Of a stretch of DNA of 17,132 bases, positions 5,371 to 17,132 are shown one piece after another (within the stretch, counting starts at the first letter, position 1; every line of letters starts with the position of its first letter). Where the stretch lies: the NCBI GenBank assembly GCA_964549075.1, contig CAZJUB010000007.1, positions 39,014 through 56,145 of the forward strand, in the 5' to 3' direction. Both the position numbers and the translations under genes were made by a program. Source of the stretch: an uncultured archaeon. GTDB taxonomy: Archaea > Asgardarchaeota > Heimdallarchaeia > Heimdallarchaeales > Heimdallarchaeaceae. The notes below the pieces were generated by a model, which saw nothing but the letters and a program-made list of their open reading frames with translations, did no database searches and was not told the origin of the DNA.

Positions 5371-5411
5371 GTTACGAAAACCTATATTTGATAGTTGCAC
5401 GGGTGAAGGCA

Positions 5412-7478
5412 GTGAGTTTTGAAAGGGAAGATGTCTATAATTTAGATTTTCAAGAACTAGAACTTCCAAGTGTAGCTTTAAGCAAAAGTAAAAAAACTCA
5501 GATTTTAACTCATATTTACTTATATAGAGCAATAGATATTCCCTCTTTTGCTAGCACGCATAAAATTCAAGAAGATTTAATTAAGGAGTATATTCGACTT
5601 CTGATTCAAGCTTTAATTATTAGAGGATCTTATAGAAAAGAGAGATTCATTCTTGCTTCTATCTATAGATATCCATCAATTTATCCCGGTAGATTGAATA
5701 ATCAAAGAAAATCTATTTTGGGAATAATAGCTCAGACTAAAAAAGTAGACATAAATGAAATATCAAAAATTATTAGGAAACCTAAAAATGAAATAATTGA
5801 AAATCTTTCTTTTCTTATAAGTAGAGGACTTTTGATAGGTGCTCTAAAGGATAATGAATTCATAGCAAGTTATGTTTGGAAACCTACAGAGAAAGTGAAG
5901 ATTGATACTACTGATACTTTCTTAGTTGGAACTTGTATGATTTTGCGAAATGCTGATTTGTCTAGAATTGTGAAATTAACCGGGATTTCTGAAGAGCACG
6001 TACTAGAAAGACTTACAGCATTAATGTTCCATAGAAAACTTGAAGCTAGATTTACGGTATCTAAAAGTTTACTAGGGTCTGATCAGATAATAATAAACAT
6101 TGAAAAATATCTGATCGCTCCGCGTATATTACCAGTTAGTGCTTTAACAGGAGATGAAAAAGATATAGTAGGTTTTTCTCTCATAAAAAAAGAAGTGAGT
6201 ATAAAAGAATTATCGACTTATATCGATAAAGATTTTCATGAAGTATTAAAAATTCTATCACTACTAACTGCTAGAGGAACCTTTCAATTCATATTTAATG
6301 AGAAAAATAAAATTATCCCTATAGTTTTTCCTGATTTAAAACCTACTGAGACCATAGAAGAAATGGCAACATTATCTTTGTTCAATTATGAAGCTCTATT
6401 TGGATTACTCTCGACCACAAATAAAATTTCTTTAAGAAAACTTTCTATATTAATGAATAGATCAGCTGAAGAAGTTCTAGATGGAATTATTACTTTATTT
6501 CTTGAGGGATTTGTTTCATGTACATTAAGAGGAACCACTATCATTATTGATAGTCTAAGGAGATATTCACGGGCTCAAGAAGGTACATTAGAAAGGTGGG
6601 AAAAGATAGTCTTGGGGATGGTTATAGCAAAAACGAATATTACTACCAAAGATATAGCTGAATCTTTAGGAATAGACAAATATGGTGCTAAAGAAAAAAT
6701 GTATGGATTTTATGGCAAAGGATTGATAAAAGGAACAATATCAAACAATAGTTTAGAACCAGAAGAAATCCCAATTTTCCCTCCTCTAGTTCAACTAGAT
6801 GACTTACCGATATATTACCAAGAGATTTTTGGATATATTATTGCTAACACCAGAGTGTCACTCAGAAATATCTCCAAATATTGGGAAAAATCCTTTATTG
6901 CAACTAAAAATATCATTTATGAATTAGTGGGATCTGGAATACTGAATGTCTCAATGAACAGAGTTTATGTTTACTTAAAATCACATCAAAAATATTTACC
7001 AAGTCTTGAGCTAAGAGAACTTGGTGAGATATATATTAAGGTGGTAAACGAGATTGAGAAGTCAAGAAGAAAACGGGTTAAACTTACCCATATTGCAGAT
7101 AAAGCAAAAATACCGCCTATAGATGTCTTCAAACTGATATGCCAATTAATTGCTCAAGGATTCTATACTGGAACATTGACAACTTCCTACTTCGAAATAA
7201 CAGGAAAACTCACACTACCTTCAAGAAAGAATTTGTGTTTGAATTGTGGGCATGAACTTAAATCAGCATATGAACCTTGCAGTAATTGTCAACAACTACC
7301 TCCAAAATGCTCAGTATGTCAAGGACTAGTTAAACGCGGAGATATGATAATTGAATGTCCTTCATGCAGTAATTTAGCTCATGAAGAACACATGAATCAA
7401 TGGTTAAGAATTAAACAGGAATGTCCAATATGTAAAACCAAAGTAAGCAAGAGGACATTGAAGAAATATCAAGCATAA
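5412..7478 (+). CDS. Tandem winged-helix (PCI-like, 8 repeats) protein with C-terminal Zn ribbon and RING-type finger; putative E3 ubiquitin ligase
   Basis: Eight repeats of about 70-80 aa, most ending in L..L...G...G-like motifs. Then CLNC...CSNC, then C-x2-C-x12-C-x2-C-x4-H-x2-H-x3-W-x6-CPIC. Start moved from TTG 5388 to GTG 5412 on SD and TATA spacing. Confidence 0.8.
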   Translation: MSFEREDVYNLDFQELELPSVALSKSKKTQILTHIYLYRAIDIPSFASTHKIQEDLIKEYIRLLIQALIIRGSYRKERFILASIYRYPSIYPGRLNNQRKSILGIIAQTKKVDINEISKIIRKPKNEIIENLSFLISRGLLIGALKDNEFIASYVWKPTEKVKIDTTDTFLVGTCMILRNADLSRIVKLTGISEEHVLERLTALMFHRKLEARFTVSKSLLGSDQIIINIEKYLIAPRILPVSALTGDEKDIVGFSLIKKEVSIKELSTYIDKDFHEVLKILSLLTARGTFQFIFNEKNKIIPIVFPDLKPTETIEEMATLSLFNYEALFGLLSTTNKISLRKLSILMNRSAEEVLDGIITLFLEGFVSCTLRGTTIIIDSLRRYSRAQEGTLERWEKIVLGMVIAKTNITTKDIAESLGIDKYGAKEKMYGFYGKGLIKGTISNNSLEPEEIPIFPPLVQLDDLPIYYQEIFGYIIANTRVSLRNISKYWEKSFIATKNIIYELVGSGILNVSMNRVYVYLKSHQKYLPSLELRELGEIYIKVVNEIEKSRRKRVKLTHIADKAKIPPIDVFKLICQLIAQGFYTGTLTTSYFEITGKLTLPSRKNLCLNCGHELKSAYEPCSNCQQLPPKCSVCQGLVKRGDMIIECPSCSNLAHEEHMNQWLRIKQECPICKTKVSKRTLKKYQA

Positions 7479-9373: not shown

Positions 9374-10531
9374 ATGTTTATGACTGACATAAAATTCTTT
9401 CATCTAGGACAGTTTTTCAGCCTAAGAGCTCTAATTACTACAATTATAGGAGTAGGATTAATTGCTGTTACTGAATTTGTTCTTCCGTGGCGAGAACTAC
9501 TATATATTGAAGCACTGCAACAATGGATTTCTCCTGCAACAATAGTTTTCACTCTTGCTGTTATTATGATAGCTTCAGCTGTTGCAAAGAATATTGTTTC
9601 ATCAATATTTTTGGCCATTGCTGCAATTCTTTCATTCTATAATCCTTATGCAACCGCCTCATTATACGGTAATCTTTTTAATGCTGGCTATATCGCCATT
9701 AGTGTTATCTACGGTTTTACAGCACTACTATCTGGTATTTTTGCTTCTGTACAGATGACCGGTAGAACTGCATTATTGTGGATAGGGATAATTTATGGAT
9801 TACAAGGATTGATAGGCGCAGGAACAAGCATGTACCTTAGTTTCAATTCAGCTCAACAAGCATACCATGATGCAAATCTAGGAATAGCTTTTGGAGAATC
9901 AATTAATGGATTTCCAGTTTATGATACGGTATTCGGAATCTTTTCGATTATCTATATGTTGGTCTTCCTAATAATCTCTAGAAAAAGAGTCTCCACAACA
10001 GTTACAACAAACAAACATGCAATTATCGGACAAATTCTGATATTCTTAAGCATTGTCGCTGGATTACTTTTCATGGTCTTCGCTGGATTCAGATACACTC
10101 AAAATGATGCGATTGCAATCTATGGACAAACAAATGTTGAATTTATGAATATGATATTCTCAAAAGTACCAGGTGGTGAATTCACCTTTACTAAATACTT
10201 GAACATTTTCTATGTCTTGCCAATTGTAGGATTTGCAATTGGTATTGCAATGGGAATAATGGTGTATAAAAGAGCTCAAGGAACAACAGATAAAATGAGA
10301 TTCAATTTCGAAGGATCATTCTTATGGCTAAATCTAGCTCCATTAGTAGTTTGCTTACTTCTAAGCAACGTGGTTATTTTAGGGATAAACTCTAGCGCTT
10401 CTTTCTATCTTAACTTACCTGCAGTTACAGCAATCTTTACAGAATATACTTTTCTGTTACTAATCAATATGCTTGTGGCATACATTATCTTTAGAATAAT
10501 AGCATTCTTCAAAGCAATATCCAAGAAATGA
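9374..10531 (+). CDS. Polytopic membrane protein, about 10 TM helices, function unknown
   Basis: 385 aa with repeated hydrophobic segments of about 20 aa. I recognised no family motif. A T-rich tract follows the stop. Confidence 0.8.
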   Translation: MFMTDIKFFHLGQFFSLRALITTIIGVGLIAVTEFVLPWRELLYIEALQQWISPATIVFTLAVIMIASAVAKNIVSSIFLAIAAILSFYNPYATASLYGNLFNAGYIAISVIYGFTALLSGIFASVQMTGRTALLWIGIIYGLQGLIGAGTSMYLSFNSAQQAYHDANLGIAFGESINGFPVYDTVFGIFSIIYMLVFLIISRKRVSTTVTTNKHAIIGQILIFLSIVAGLLFMVFAGFRYTQNDAIAIYGQTNVEFMNMIFSKVPGGEFTFTKYLNIFYVLPIVGFAIGIAMGIMVYKRAQGTTDKMRFNFEGSFLWLNLAPLVVCLLLSNVVILGINSSASFYLNLPAVTAIFTEYTFLLLINMLVAYIIFRIIAFFKAISKK

Positions 10532-10555
10532 TTTTCATTTCTTTTATTCTATTTT

Positions 10556-11803
10556 TTAAAAAGCAATAGTCTCTTGTTCGTCTGAAATTTTCTGTTGACT
10601 TCTACTGGTTACCTGAGTTAATCTCTCTTTCATTTTTGGATTTAAACCAAATAACAAGGATCTACCTTTTTCTCCGGATACAACAACAACATTCTTGTCT
10701 TTTAATCTCTTAAGAAAACTCTTTGTTCCCATGTATTTACTTCTATATTCAGATGATGGTAACTTACCATATAAATGAATAGTAATTTCTTTTGCTGTAG
10801 CATCCTTATGCATAAGATATTCGCAAACTTGTCTTTCTCTATAGGGAAAATTATTGAGTGCTTGTTGAATCATAAATTTATCATGGTCTTCAAGTCCATC
10901 TTGTACTGTTGATGGTGAAAATAAGTCTAACACTTCAGAAACATCTTCTTCACTTACAGTTTTAGAACCTTTTTTTAGCGTATAAGTATAAGCATTAGAA
11001 AGTATAGAAATAAAAATCCAAGGATTTCCTACAGCAGTACTCCATGCACGTTGAATTGCATTCTCAGAAAATACTTCATTTACTCTGAAAGAGGCTTTAT
11101 TGAGAGCATAACACATTCTTGAGCGAATAAGCTCTTTTGCTTCAACAAGTTTCAAAGCAGGGATTTTTATACGATATGTAAAATCAGACCATCCTTTCTC
11201 CATTAATCCTGTTCGACTTAATTGCATATTATTTTCATTTACGGATATGATAGCTGAAAAATTCCCTTTTAATGACTTATGAATTTTAGCAGTGTCACTT
11301 GAGATATCACGAAGTTTATCACCTTTAAAATCATCTAACAGTACCACTATGAGAGAATTAGTGTTTTTAACATAGTTTTGTAATTCAAACATATTAAGCT
11401 CTTTTGTTGTGAAGAATTTATTCAAAACTTTTTCAGATATCTTTTGAACATATTTAGTAAAAAGATATTCTTTGAAATCTTCGTCATTAAAAAGAATTAC
11501 ATGGATTTTATCAAATTCTGTATATTTCCAGAGAGATTCCTGCATTCCTTCCTTTAGAAGATACATAAGATATGATTTTCCTGATTTTATATCTCCACTA
11601 ATTGAGTTAATGGAATTTCCTGAACTAACAATCTTAATCAGATTAGCTATTTGGCTGTTTAAGTTTTCAGATGAAACATATAATTCGGGGAGAGGTTCCA
11701 TAGTCCAGGGGTCTCTTCTAAATTCTTGATTTTGTACATCAAATTCGTCATCTTTGATATATTTAGAAATTTTAAAGACCCGATCTAATAGGTTTTCTGA
11801 CAA
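10556..11803 (-). CDS. AAA+ (ExeA/Cdc6-like) P-loop protein with C-terminal winged helix, partly degenerate
   Basis: N-terminal FRRDPW..EP (NPF-like motif), Walker A GDIKSGKS, Walker B VVLLDDF and helical lid AVGNPW. C-terminal wHTH RERQVCEYL...TAKEI...LKRLKDKNVV...GRSLLFGL. Confidence 0.7.
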   Translation of the reverse strand: MSENLLDRVFKISKYIKDDEFDVQNQEFRRDPWTMEPLPELYVSSENLNSQIANLIKIVSSGNSINSISGDIKSGKSYLMYLLKEGMQESLWKYTEFDKIHVILFNDEDFKEYLFTKYVQKISEKVLNKFFTTKELNMFELQNYVKNTNSLIVVLLDDFKGDKLRDISSDTAKIHKSLKGNFSAIISVNENNMQLSRTGLMEKGWSDFTYRIKIPALKLVEAKELIRSRMCYALNKASFRVNEVFSENAIQRAWSTAVGNPWIFISILSNAYTYTLKKGSKTVSEEDVSEVLDLFSPSTVQDGLEDHDKFMIQQALNNFPYRERQVCEYLMHKDATAKEITIHLYGKLPSSEYRSKYMGTKSFLKRLKDKNVVVVSGEKGRSLLFGLNPKMKERLTQVTSRSQQKISDEQETIAF

Positions 11804-14673: not shown

Positions 14674-14731
14674 GTGAGCTTGTTTTTTTCCTTAAAAAAA
14701 CTCTTCTACCTTTGCTTTTTCAATGCAAATA

Positions 14732-15574
14732 TCATGCTATGAAAACTGCAATTAACCATGAAATTGCAATAATTATTACTGCTATTACATTTAATACTGC
14801 ATAGAAATTTGTTGTTTCCTCACTATAAATATAATTTATATCTCTAACAATATGATTTAATTTTGTATCAATAGCTTCTAAAGTTTCTTTTCCTTCATTA
14901 CTAGAAACAAATTGCTCGTTTGAAGAACTTAAAACTTCTACAAAACCATGTAACAACTGTTTATCGCCTTCGAGCATTGCAGAAGGTTTGATTGATTGTA
15001 TTTTCTGATGAAGGATTTGAACTTCTGCTTGAGACAGTTTCGGTAGTTCCCATTTGATGTCGAATTCTACTAAATTAGCCAAATGAGTAGTTACATCATC
15101 GTAATAGATATCAAATGGAATTGCTTTGTAATCTAAATCGTCTATCATTCTAAAAAACTTGATCTCTAAATCTTTCTGATCAAATGTATTGTAATATTTT
15201 GAGGGGTCTATTACAAGAGCTACAGCTTGAGAAAAAAGACTCTGATAAGTTCTTTGTGTGCTTTTATCGGTTCCAGACAGAAAACAACCATAAGAAGGAT
15301 GAGTATGTGCCCATCCAACAATTGTTTCTTTCTTATCTCGCTTCTGAAGTTCTGTAGCAATTTGAACTAAAGCTTCATCATCCAGTACAACATAGGTAGA
15401 AGTTTGTTGTTGCTTTCCTGTATCAAAATCAGTTATGACTAAAGTTTTACTATCTTCCTCAACATATCCAAGTAATAATCCTGCAGATTCCTTCGAATGG
15501 TCTAAAGAGTCAACTGCAAGAATCTTTGCTAATACATAGGCGGAGATTAGTATCTCTTGGTTAGAGTTAGTCAT
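14732..15574 (-). CDS. JAB1/MPN/Mov34 (JAMM) metallo-isopeptidase with C-terminal transmembrane anchor
   Basis: ESAGLLLG, GWAHTHPSYGCFLSGTD (intact E...HxH-x7-S-x2-D) and AVALVIDP. The last 24 residues are hydrophobic (FYAVLNVIAVIIIAISWLIAVFIA*). ATG 15574 follows AGGAG and is preferred over TTG 15592. Confidence 0.88.
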   Translation of the reverse strand: MTNSNQEILISAYVLAKILAVDSLDHSKESAGLLLGYVEEDSKTLVITDFDTGKQQQTSTYVVLDDEALVQIATELQKRDKKETIVGWAHTHPSYGCFLSGTDKSTQRTYQSLFSQAVALVIDPSKYYNTFDQKDLEIKFFRMIDDLDYKAIPFDIYYDDVTTHLANLVEFDIKWELPKLSQAEVQILHQKIQSIKPSAMLEGDKQLLHGFVEVLSSSNEQFVSSNEGKETLEAIDTKLNHIVRDINYIYSEETTNFYAVLNVIAVIIIAISWLIAVFIA

Positions 15575-15622
15575 CTCAATTCTCCTTTTCAATCCACCTT
15601 TAAAATACTTTTTGCAGAAGAA

Positions 15623-16669
15623 TCATATAAAATTATTTATTTCTTTACTAATAGGTTGTTCAGTTAGTAAGAGAACAGCTAATTCTTTAAGTAGAAGAAT
15701 GTCTGAATGATTTAGAGAAACATTTTGGGTAGTTGTTTTGTCTAGAATGTCCATCATTGCCCAGATTGCTATAAAGAAATCAAGTGGATATCCTTTAGGA
15801 TATAATTCCTCTAAAGGTGTAGAGTTGACTTCTTTTAAATGAACATTATATCCTTGAATGAAATCCTTGATATCATCAATGATTGCGTCTAGTTTTTTTG
15901 CAGATCTATATTCTAAGAAAGCTTGTCTTCCAAAAAAAGTTCCTATATCTTCAAAACGGTCAAATGCTCCTTGCATCCAAAAAGTAGGATCTATTAAAGC
16001 GATTCCTAGAACTTCATTCTGAGGAGATGTTCTTACCATAAGGTTACTCTGATGAAAATCACCAAAAGCATCACTACCCCCCTTTGAAACTGCTATCATC
16101 TCAAGCAAGCGTTTTGATCGATCCATTATTTTCTGTTCTATTTCTTCTCCACCATATACTGAAAGAACTAAACGTCTATAGAGTTCCTCATAAATATCTG
16201 TAATTGCTGGTCGAGGCTTTCCTTCATGTATTATTGATAGTACATAGCCTGCCCAGAAGCTTTTATCTCTAATATTATAAGCATCCTCATAGTTAATCCC
16301 AGAAACACCTTCATAAGCAATAAAAGTAGGTGATTTTAAACTGACATAAACATATCTTGGTATTTTTACCACTGAACGGGTGGAAAATTTTTTTTCTAAA
16401 AATGAGGAATTTTTAATTTCCGTGATTGCCTCAGTAGGACTCTCCATAAATTTAATAGCTAATTTTGTTTTATGTGTGTCATAAAATGAAGTATACATTA
16501 CATCGATAACATACACATCACCAAATCTTCCTCCGGTTTTTACATATTCGATATCTTGTATTTGTACTTCTAGAACATCTTTTCCTATCTCTCTTCGAGC
16601 TTCATCTATAAGGTAATAAGAAAAAGAACTTACCAGCTGTATTAGTAGAGGTTTGAGTGAATCACTCAT
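15623..16669 (-). CDS. Protein-kinase-like fold phosphotransferase (APH/choline kinase-like)
   Basis: Gly loop TGGRFGDVY, LAIKF lysine, helix-C E (TEIKN), catalytic loop GDFHQSNLMV, metal-binding LIDP and downstream DRFEDIG. Confidence 0.75.
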   Translation of the reverse strand: MSDSLKPLLIQLVSSFSYYLIDEARREIGKDVLEVQIQDIEYVKTGGRFGDVYVIDVMYTSFYDTHKTKLAIKFMESPTEAITEIKNSSFLEKKFSTRSVVKIPRYVYVSLKSPTFIAYEGVSGINYEDAYNIRDKSFWAGYVLSIIHEGKPRPAITDIYEELYRRLVLSVYGGEEIEQKIMDRSKRLLEMIAVSKGGSDAFGDFHQSNLMVRTSPQNEVLGIALIDPTFWMQGAFDRFEDIGTFFGRQAFLEYRSAKKLDAIIDDIKDFIQGYNVHLKEVNSTPLEELYPKGYPLDFFIAIWAMMDILDKTTTQNVSLNHSDILLLKELAVLLLTEQPISKEINNFI

Positions 16670-16873: not shown

Positions 16874-17132
16874 ATGAATGAAAAAGAAGATTCAATGGAA
16901 ATGCTTGATTGGGACAAAAAAAACATAATTCGATTTGCCCAATATCTATACGATTTAGCTAAGGAAAGGGTTCAATTAGATAATGTAATCTCTCCAGAAG
17001 CTATTTTAAAAGCACCTATAGAATCTGAGGTAGTAGAGGAAGTTCTAGAAGAACCAGATGTTGAAATCGAAGAAGAGGTTCTAGAAGAACCAGATGTTGA
17101 AATCGAAGAAGAGGTTCTAGAAGAACCAGATG
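16874..17132 (+). CDS. 5' part of a highly acidic repeat-containing protein (absent from the ORF track, runs off the window)
   Basis: ATG 16874 follows an in-frame TAA at 16859 and is open to the end: MNEKEDSMEMLDWDKKNIIRFAQYLYDLAKERVQLDNVISPEAILKAPIESEVVEE(VLEEPDVEIEEE)n. Confidence 0.8.
   Translation, partial: MNEKEDSMEMLDWDKKNIIRFAQYLYDLAKERVQLDNVISPEAILKAPIESEVVEEVLEEPDVEIEEEVLEEPDVEIEEEVLEEPD
17042..17132 (+). repeat. Perfect 36-bp coding tandem repeat, at least 2.5 copies
   Basis: GTTCTAGAAGAACCAGATGTTGAAATCGAAGAAGAG starts at 17042, 17078 and 17114 (truncated) and encodes VLEEPDVEIEEE. Confidence 0.95.

Follow-up and report, generated by a model that had tools for sequence, protein, structure and literature searches.

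The stretch of DNA considered here (the window) comprises 17,132 nt of contig 7 in a 3.2-Mb assembly (217 contigs, 90% complete) of a Heimdallarchaeaceae archaeon. It carries a gene, P0001, whose product combines an MPN+/JAMM catalytic domain with a hydrophobic helix at its extreme C-terminus, the arrangement of a tail-anchored (TA) protein, and beside it a gene, P0199, whose product has the fold of APH/choline kinases (Table 1). The open reading frame (ORF) of the JAMM gene can be carried back to a TTG codon (14732..15592, minus strand, 286 residues). The ATG at 15574, which gives 280 residues, is most likely the true start rather than the TTG, because a GGAG precedes it and most homologues begin there: in 21 of the 24 that were aligned, the start falls within one residue of it. 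Residues are counted here from this ATG. An earlier note on the same DNA, which described the product as a tail-anchored relative of Rpn11 and CSN5, used the TTG frame, and its E35, H96, H98, S106 and D109 are the E29, H90, H92, S100 and D103 of this text. The run of seven T that follows the gene is possibly an archaeal terminator closing a two-gene unit.

Table 1. The JAMM gene, its parts and its kinase-fold partner, in coordinates of the window
Feature	Position	Strand	Basis or remark
TA MPN+/JAMM gene P0001, 280 aa	14732..15574	-	stop codon 14732-14734
MPN+ catalytic domain, residues 1-160	15095..15574	-	Pfam JAB, alignment to CsRpn11, Foldseek
E29 codon	15488-15490	-	
H90-x-H92...S100..D103 motif	15266-15307	-	
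Middle region, residues 161-228	14891..15094	-	predicted helices 160-168, 182-193, 202-217
Stalk helix, residues 229-256	14807..14890	-	continues unbroken into the membrane helix
C-terminal hydrophobic helix (putative tail anchor), residues 257-280	14735..14806	-	hydropathy and alignment
GGAG, Shine-Dalgarno-like	15582..15585	-	8 nt 5' of the ATG, inside the 48-nt spacer after the kinase-like gene; read directly
Run of seven T	14694..14700	-	31 nt past the JAMM stop, ahead of the CofE-like gene; read directly
Partner gene P0199, 348-aa APH/choline-kinase-fold protein	15623..16669	-	48 nt upstream of the JAMM gene

The protein is almost certainly an active MPN+ hydrolase, as judged by its match to known members and by the state of its active site. 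Residues 4-113 match Pfam JAB (PF01398) with an expect value (E) of 7.2e-16 and 58.5 bits, against a cut-off of 22.5. The five JAMM residues are invariant in 24 members of the family and again in an alignment of 35 sequences that includes relatives at 24-31% identity. Among sequences in the PDB, the best match is the Rpn11 homologue of Caldiarchaeum subterraneum, CsRpn11 (6fjv, E 6.5e-26, residues 6-144), followed in order by Rpn11 (2.1e-15), CSN5 (1.8e-13 to 3e-12), AMSH-like (2e-9) and BRCC36 (4e-3) entries. An AlphaFold model built from 24 homologues, with a mean predicted local distance difference test (pLDDT) of 72, shows the MPN fold, and Foldseek aligns it with 6fju_B at an E of 1.5e-14, a target template-modelling (TM) score of 0.78 and 37% identity. 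Pfam, PDB sequence matches and Foldseek agree, then, on what the earlier note had read from the letters, a complete JAMM site within an Rpn11-type MPN+ domain. Where a possible Ins-1 segment (the part that positions the ubiquitin tail) is concerned, the alignment of residues 6-144 to CsRpn11 is broken once, by two residues near position 38; the family strongly conserves residues 48-66, and model confidence is low at 57-64. Other identities within the JAMM enzymes can be set aside. The archaeal desampylase model (HvJAMM1 type, NCBIfam NF041370) gives 17.7 bits against a cut-off of 130. That for the CBASS Cap3 isopeptidase (NCBIfam NF050170) gives 17.1 bits against 200, and no defence genes were seen in the window. 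A Pfam scan of the protein returned JAB and Prok-JAB only, with no AMSH-type MIT or other ESCRT-binding module.

Beyond the catalytic domain lies the middle region, where both conservation and model confidence are lowest, and beyond that a single continuous helix, which AlphaFold draws from residue 229 to 279. The first part of this helix, the stalk, bears L232, I235, L239, I242, I246 and I249 at a spacing of 3-4-3-4-3, and the heptad-like segment described earlier is thus recovered by direct reading. Four of the six (L232, L239, I242 and I249) show little or no variation across the family. The second part is the tail. The highest Kyte-Doolittle mean over 19 residues anywhere in the protein is 2.88, at residues 261-279 of 280, one residue short of the stop, and the tails of all 24 homologues (down to 48% identity) score 2.47-2.97, in a segment that ends 0-3 residues from the C-terminus. 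The next most hydrophobic segment elsewhere reaches 1.34 in P0001 and no more than 1.66 in any of the homologues. Within the tail helix, Y258, N262 and W273 are invariant in the family. Hydropathy gives no signal-like segment at the N-terminus, where the MPN core begins with its first strand and helix; residues 6-144 align with the core of CsRpn11. The protein thus has one hydrophobic helix, at its extreme C-terminus, and no other membrane segment. The earlier observations of a hydrophobic helix running up to the stop and of a missing signal peptide hold good, and orthologs do keep the tail, as do distant relatives. Very probably, then, the tail is a real membrane anchor.

Other accounts of the tail have been considered. 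An archaeosortase-type C-terminal sorting signal was set aside, there being no signal peptide, PGF-like motif or basic tail, the marks of such a signal. The genome encodes a full-length ArsA/Get3-family ATPase (E 6e-78), but the family is found in all 14 control genomes and is uninformative on insertion. A different view is that the helix does not enter a membrane at all but is buried in a soluble multi-subunit helical bundle, like the C-terminal helices of Rpn11 and CSN5 in the lid and signalosome. Foldseek does superpose the whole model, with its helices, on complete Rpn11 and CSN5 chains taken from their complexes (TM score ~0.5, root-mean-square deviation 11-16 Å), and the juxtamembrane flank lacks basic residues. 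A hydropathy of 2.5-3.0 over 19 residues, however, is far above that of eukaryote-type Rpn11-like representatives, and five of these, which share one C-terminal tail, peak at only 1.57-1.59, within two residues of the C-terminus. The segment in the P0001 family invariably sits at the very end, positions 257-280 are 82% hydrophobic across the family, and no MPN gene was found in the genome beyond its two JAB matches (PCI genes were not searched for), so that a buried helix seems very improbable.

The earlier note presented the tail-anchored JAMM as a trait of one archaeon, and here it has to be corrected, for the arrangement belongs to an Asgard-wide group. A word-indexed search finds 48 other proteins at 49-90% identity to P0001, nearly all 277-294 residues long, of which those with names are all from Heimdallarchaeota or Heimdallarchaeaceae. 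A profile search of 1.84 billion cluster representatives reaches much farther, with 4912 matches at E <= 1e-3. Architectures were counted in the best 150 of these representatives (50%-identity clusters), calling TA those in which the JAMM motif is followed by one hydrophobic helix lying no more than 12 residues from the C-terminus. By this count, 38 are TA (including 17 of the top 20), 87 soluble and 11 otherwise arranged, 5 are fragments lacking the motif, and 9 have a helix near residue 190 and then a large C-terminal domain. The taxonomic range was read from 79 loci in species-representative genomes: 30 TA (29 archaeal and one bacterial, from Desantisbacteria), 46 soluble, 2 with a helix and an outer domain, and 1 truncated where its contig stops. 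The archaeal TA loci carry Heimdall-, Baldr-, Jord-, Frey-, Prometh(Loki)-, Kari-, Hermod-, Hel- and Odin-archaeal labels, with one labelled Bathyarchaeia and three simply archaeal, and all Caldarchaeum and Nitrososphaerota JAMMs among the 79 loci are soluble.

Two groups within these sets stand out. In one, an MPN+ domain is followed by a single helix near residue 170-210 and a C-terminal domain of 120-550 residues that would be extracellular; its loci are L060 5992-7275 (Thermoplasmata label) and L063 662-2203 (Bathyarchaeia label), and its representatives, the 9 counted above, are P0085, P0104, P0113, P0115, P0127, P0147, P0148, P0161 and P0183. The other consists of short-form TA JAMMs (217-245 residues) from Jord-, Baldr-, Odin-, Prometh- and Hermod-archaeal bins. 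Their loci share a conserved neighbour of ~255-269 residues that matches nothing in Pfam and is 29-41% identical across lineages (L019 3801-5798; L018 2520-4556; L047 3963-5979; L026 2362-3153; L028 2533-3306; L036 2444-3214), and in three lineages a protein of ~410 residues also stands beside them. No homologue of the ~255-residue or the ~410-residue neighbour was found in the window's genome at an E of 1e-5.

How the anchored enzymes relate to the soluble ones was judged from a quick IQ-TREE search with SH-aLRT support, on 92 rows and the MPN part only (window residues 5-160). The earlier note had called for a tree against Rpn11, CSN5, AMSH and JAMM1; the present one takes in the first two, and the rows for AMSH, BRCC36 and JAMM1 were left out. 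The 30 archaeal TA rows, the window included, lie on one side of a single branch with a support of 74, which weakly suggests that TA JAMMs form one clade. The TA state changes twice on the tree, the second time in a bacterial row (locus L082), where it arose separately from archaeal TA. Within the clade, the window's family groups with L016, L017, L025 and L029 in a long-form subclade at a support of 90. Representatives of Rpn11 and CSN5 (identity checked) join the soluble JAMMs of Asgard operons, including this genome's own paralogue, at 95, and the node that orders the TA clade against this Rpn11/CSN5/operon group has a support of 0. As far as this tree goes, then, P0001 is Rpn11-like in sequence and fold but outside the lineage that leads to Rpn11 and CSN5. 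The description of the protein as Rpn11/CSN5-like survives as a statement about its nearest sequence and fold, and fails as one about its place inside the clade of Rpn11 and CSN5.

The kinase-fold gene upstream had no part in the earlier account of P0001. Its product, P0199, has no Pfam match even at an E of 10, the Pfam APH model included, and a profile of its family matches no PDB sequence (the best, a ribosomal protein, at an E of 0.026). A protein-language-model atlas nevertheless places it near APH-type clusters. Its AlphaFold model (pLDDT 89, predicted TM score 0.85) finds aminoglycoside, macrolide, choline, methylthioribose and N-acetylhexosamine kinases by Foldseek with E values from 8e-9 and a probability of 1.00, at no more than 17% identity to any solved member. 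In 18 sequences K73, D204, H206, N209 and D227 never vary and E84 hardly does; together they make up the full catalytic complement of an APH kinase. The fold, the lysine, the Asp...Asn loop and the metal-binding aspartate mark P0199 as a putative kinase of the APH type. The 34 relatives found are all Heimdallarchaeial, and a second copy on contig 9 of this genome has no JAMM alongside.

The kinase-like gene adjoins a JAMM gene in 13 of the 79 loci, by profile search, and these 13 coincide with the long-form subclade. When 83 genomes of the class are compared, the pair is adjacent and on one strand in 27 of the 31 from the window's family; in one of the other four the two genes lie on two contigs, and the remaining three, incomplete, have neither. 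In the sister family (12 genomes) they are adjacent in 6 and within 1.8-2.4 kb of one another in 5, and 1 lacks the kinase. The genomes are related and not independent, so these counts show conservation and are not statistics. In the window's family a CofE-like gene and a dihydropteroate-synthase (DHPS) gene lie downstream of the pair, and a folate/F420 connection might be imagined. As a deep association it is ruled out: both genes are inverted in L015, where the pair is intact, and they are absent from L016, L017, L025 and L029. The conserved pairing, the inversion in L015 outside the pair and the run of seven T lead me to read kinase and JAMM genes as a two-gene unit, and a functional coupling of P0001 to the kinase seems a fair bet. 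The predicted complex of JAMM residues 1-256 with P0199 scores 0.22 against a mark of 0.32, which speaks neither for nor against binding.

Some genes at these loci deserve separate mention. In two deeper Heimdall-type loci, L016 (4372-5916) and L017 (4371-5915), the gene of a PilB/T2SSE-type ATPase stands between the kinase-like and TA JAMM genes, directly upstream of the latter, and L016 has a T2SSF-type membrane protein gene (9667-10563) 3 kb downstream. On the far side of the kinase-like gene in the window, an ORF at 16874-17131 (plus strand) runs off the end; it encodes an acidic tandem repeat, whose ~12-residue units abound in E, V, L, P and D. A counterpart of the N-terminal part, likewise transcribed away from the kinase-like gene, occupies this position in 7 of 9 related loci; none was found in L015 or in L010, whose contig ends there. 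Two more genes of the window, one for 385 residues with several hydrophobic segments (9374-10531, plus strand) and one for a soluble protein of 415 (10556-11803, minus strand), are without Pfam match; in 8 of 9 related loci both stand next to the GHMP-kinase and DHPS genes, and in the ninth, L014, the contig stops before it reaches them.

The genome encodes ubiquitin machinery in two places. The operon on contig 22 (L005 6348-12085) has genes for an E2 (UQ_con, E 5.6e-27), a soluble JAMM of 239 residues, a RING-like membrane protein, a second membrane protein, a ubiquitin-like protein (Ubl) and an E1 (ThiF, E 2.5e-56). This JAMM and P0001 are the two JAB genes of the genome, and the JAMM motif region is matched in both. 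The Ubl (119 residues, ubiquitin E 3.5e-8) ends in TAG, not GG. The RING-like protein, of 370 residues, is multi-pass and ends in the finger (weak Pfam matches, E 0.004-0.015, below the cut-offs); a membrane-embedded E3 candidate is unusual beside the RING protein of Caldiarchaeum, which is small and soluble. The second place is on contig 18 (L006 4922-10365), where a 78-residue ubiquitin that ends GG-S, an E1, a 470-residue fusion and a Ras-family small GTPase are encoded within 5.5 kb, all in one direction; three further ORFs lie between the genes of the ubiquitin and the GTPase. The fusion matches UQ_con/UEV, Vps23-core and VPS28 and is thus ESCRT-I-like. As judged by these matches, all the parts needed for ubiquitination at a membrane are encoded in the genome; the ubiquitin machinery, the membrane RING-like protein and the ESCRT-I-like fusion together make ubiquitin control at membranes plausible. 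A further E3-like protein may be encoded in the window itself, 7 kb from the JAMM gene: a soluble protein of 696 residues (5388-7478, plus strand) whose last ~45 residues are RING-like (zf-RING_2, E 1.4e-5, 25.7 bits against a cut-off of 27.3) and whose remainder matches no clear family.

The GG-S ending of the contig 18 ubiquitin calls for C-terminal trimming, and one could suppose that P0001 mainly matures the ubiquitin precursor by removing the residue past Gly-Gly, its anchor merely localising or limiting the activity. That gene is the genome's best ubiquitin gene, and the Caldiarchaeum homologue does process a precursor, according to PMC6043591. There is, however, the soluble paralogue in the ubiquitin operon of the same genome, which could do the same job, and so could a second JAB gene, wherever located, in each of five further genomes of the family. 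Each of these five has one or two ubiquitin genes and exactly two JAB genes above the cut-off, and on the latter count the idea that in some genomes the TA enzyme is the sole JAMM was rejected. A conserved anchor with invariant residues inside the membrane is besides hard to explain for a bulk task in the cytosol, and I consider precursor maturation as the main role to be quite improbable.

I propose instead that P0001 is a tail-anchored, cytoplasm-facing, zinc-dependent MPN+ isopeptidase of the archaeal Rpn11-like type, which trims ubiquitin or Ubl at the membrane; taken as a whole, this seems to me the likelier account. Isopeptidase activity is suggested by homology to CsRpn11, which processes both the ubiquitin precursor and ubiquitinated proteins (PMC6043591), and a ubiquitin or Ubl substrate is probable on the same grounds. 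The catalytic domain would take up the C-terminal tail of a ubiquitin-like protein in the manner of CsRpn11 and would cut the bond that follows the terminal glycine. The helical region, the stalk and the membrane helix would hold the active site a few nm from the inner face of the membrane; inside the membrane helix, invariant Y258, N262 and W273 may make specific helix-helix contacts, in self-association or with a membrane partner. A second JAMM paralogue, separate from the soluble one of the ubiquitin operon and presumably expressed from a two-gene unit with the kinase, the enzyme would remove or trim ubiquitin or Ubl on membrane-located proteins, opposing the multi-pass RING-like protein of that operon, and it might serve ESCRT-linked sorting. 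The kinase would regulate or prime its reaction. A role in the sorting or turnover of membrane proteins is a tentative extension and on present evidence rather doubtful.

Must the substrate be ubiquitin? The TA clade stands outside the clade of the operon JAMMs, so the two kinds of enzyme might act on different substrates. P0001 might then be a membrane MPN+ hydrolase of some other beta-grasp adduct, of a peptide, or of an amide coupled to the product of the kinase, the two enzymes making up a membrane-proximal pathway unrelated to ubiquitin. Small-molecule kinases are the fold neighbours of P0199, CofE-like and DHPS genes follow the pair in the window's family, and the archaeal TA loci have no E1, E2 or ubiquitin neighbours. 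That archaeal TA JAMMs sit in ubiquitin operons was indeed tried and rejected, by Pfam: none of 19 archaeal TA loci has an E1 or E2 within 3.5 kb. Against all this, the nearest solved relative of P0001 (37-39% identity) is a proven ubiquitin-processing enzyme, over whose ubiquitin-binding core residues 6-144 align nearly gap-free. The desampylase and Cap3 models are far below their cut-offs, and the kinase-JAMM link persists where the CofE-like and DHPS genes are inverted or absent. A substrate other than ubiquitin is unlikely, and a membrane-tethered trimmer of ubiquitin or Ubl is still the reading to be preferred.

Several observations weigh against that reading and should be set beside it. 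In all 24 homologues the 15 residues that precede the tail helix have a net acidic or neutral charge and include no basic cluster, contrary to the positive-inside rule, and the tail-anchor call is the product of a simple hydropathy rule and not of a trained predictor. The support for a single TA clade (74, from a quick search) is weak, and the clade falls outside the one of Rpn11, CSN5 and the operon JAMMs, supported at 95. Over 20 TA loci with scanned neighbours (142 ORFs), E1 and E2 adjoin the JAMM only in the bacterial L082. The pair is not universal: in two other families of the same order all 4 genomes have its members on different contigs, and all 12 genomes of a further family in the class have a long-form-like JAMM and lack the kinase. 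Since the fold neighbours of P0199 are mostly small-molecule kinases, the partner need not act on proteins. Finally, the DNA occurs in 20 listed sequencing runs, salt-marsh and sediment metagenomes, and no RNA run is among them.

The bacterial locus just mentioned is of interest in itself. In Desantisbacteria (L082 249-7354), genes for an E1, a PIN-domain protein, an E2-like protein, a TA JAB protein, a second JAB protein and a STAND-type ATPase lie in a row.

Why should it matter whether such an enzyme is held at a membrane? Sorting of membrane proteins by way of ubiquitin counts as a hallmark of eukaryotes, and Asgard archaea are the place to seek its origin. Prior work has provided a soluble, operon-encoded archaeal homologue of Rpn11 and contacts between ubiquitin and ESCRT; a conserved, membrane-bound JAMM paralogue would supply the missing eraser at the right place. 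A TA JAMM in Asgard archaea suggests that the archaea nearest to eukaryotes may edit ubiquitin marks at the membrane, and P0001 is a concrete, cloneable target with which to ask whether archaeal ubiquitination acts on membrane proteins, given its soluble part (1-256), the GG-S ubiquitin precursor of the same organism and the kinase-fold partner. The pairing of kinase and JAMM is a new association that could reveal how such an enzyme is controlled. One may go further and imagine an old, Asgard-wide class of membrane-anchored Rpn11-like deubiquitinases and, in Heimdallarchaeia, a module with a dedicated kinase that edits membrane ubiquitin marks against a membrane RING ligase and feeds ESCRT. 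That larger picture is speculative, and I would not expect it to hold in full; if it were true, it would be an archaeal forerunner of the eukaryotic endomembrane ubiquitin code, with phosphorylation-coupled control of deubiquitination already present.

The catalytic domain is of a kind already known. The covalent anchor, the Asgard-wide TA group and the kinase pairing are apparently new, in that none was met in the literature searched, which included two papers on Asgard ubiquitin and ESCRT (PMC9192718 and PMC10936438) and the one on CsRpn11 (PMC6043591), supplements aside. Nor was a transmembrane or tail-anchored JAMM found there, in keeping with the earlier remark that the characterised JAMM enzymes are soluble.

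It remains to compare P0001 with systems that are better understood. The closest is CsRpn11 (6fju, 6fjv and 6fnn), its best match in both sequence and fold, at 37-39% identity, which has the same MPN+ fold and catalytic residues and is a stand-alone archaeal enzyme that needs no lid complex. PMC6043591 describes it as "a primordial soluble Rpn11", and the word membrane does not occur in the main text of that paper. The two differ in that CsRpn11 is soluble and encoded in a ubiquitin operon, whereas P0001 carries 120 further residues, the last of them a membrane helix, is encoded outside any ubiquitin operon and is paired with a kinase-fold gene. Rpn11 (PSMD14) and CSN5 have the JAMM motif, the MPN+ fold and C-terminal helices in common with P0001; they work in PCI complexes with an MPN- partner and group with the soluble JAMMs of Asgard operons, not with the TA clade.

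AMSH (STAMBP) is an endosomal JAMM deubiquitinase that removes ubiquitin at a membrane in connection with ESCRT; it is soluble and is recruited through MIT and ESCRT contacts. As a JAMM that works at a membrane it is the functional parallel to the role proposed here. Its similarity to P0001 is weaker (E 2e-9), and P0001 has the JAB domain only and, in place of recruitment, a covalent anchor. The anchor itself has its counterpart in USP19, the tail-anchored deubiquitinase of the animal endoplasmic reticulum, with its catalytic part in the cytosol (bioRxiv 10.1101/2020.10.05.326363). The logic of a C-terminal anchor and a cytosolic deubiquitinase is the same, but as a USP-class cysteine protease of unrelated fold USP19 is an analogue and not a homologue. 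The partner, lastly, has the bilobal fold, the conserved lysine, the Asp-x-x-x-x-Asn and the metal-binding aspartate in common with APH/choline-kinase-like phosphotransferases such as APH(9)-Ia, PsiK and the macrolide phosphotransferases. It differs from the solved kinases of this type in its low identity to them and in its lack of a Pfam match, and no APH-type kinase is otherwise known to be paired with a JAMM gene.

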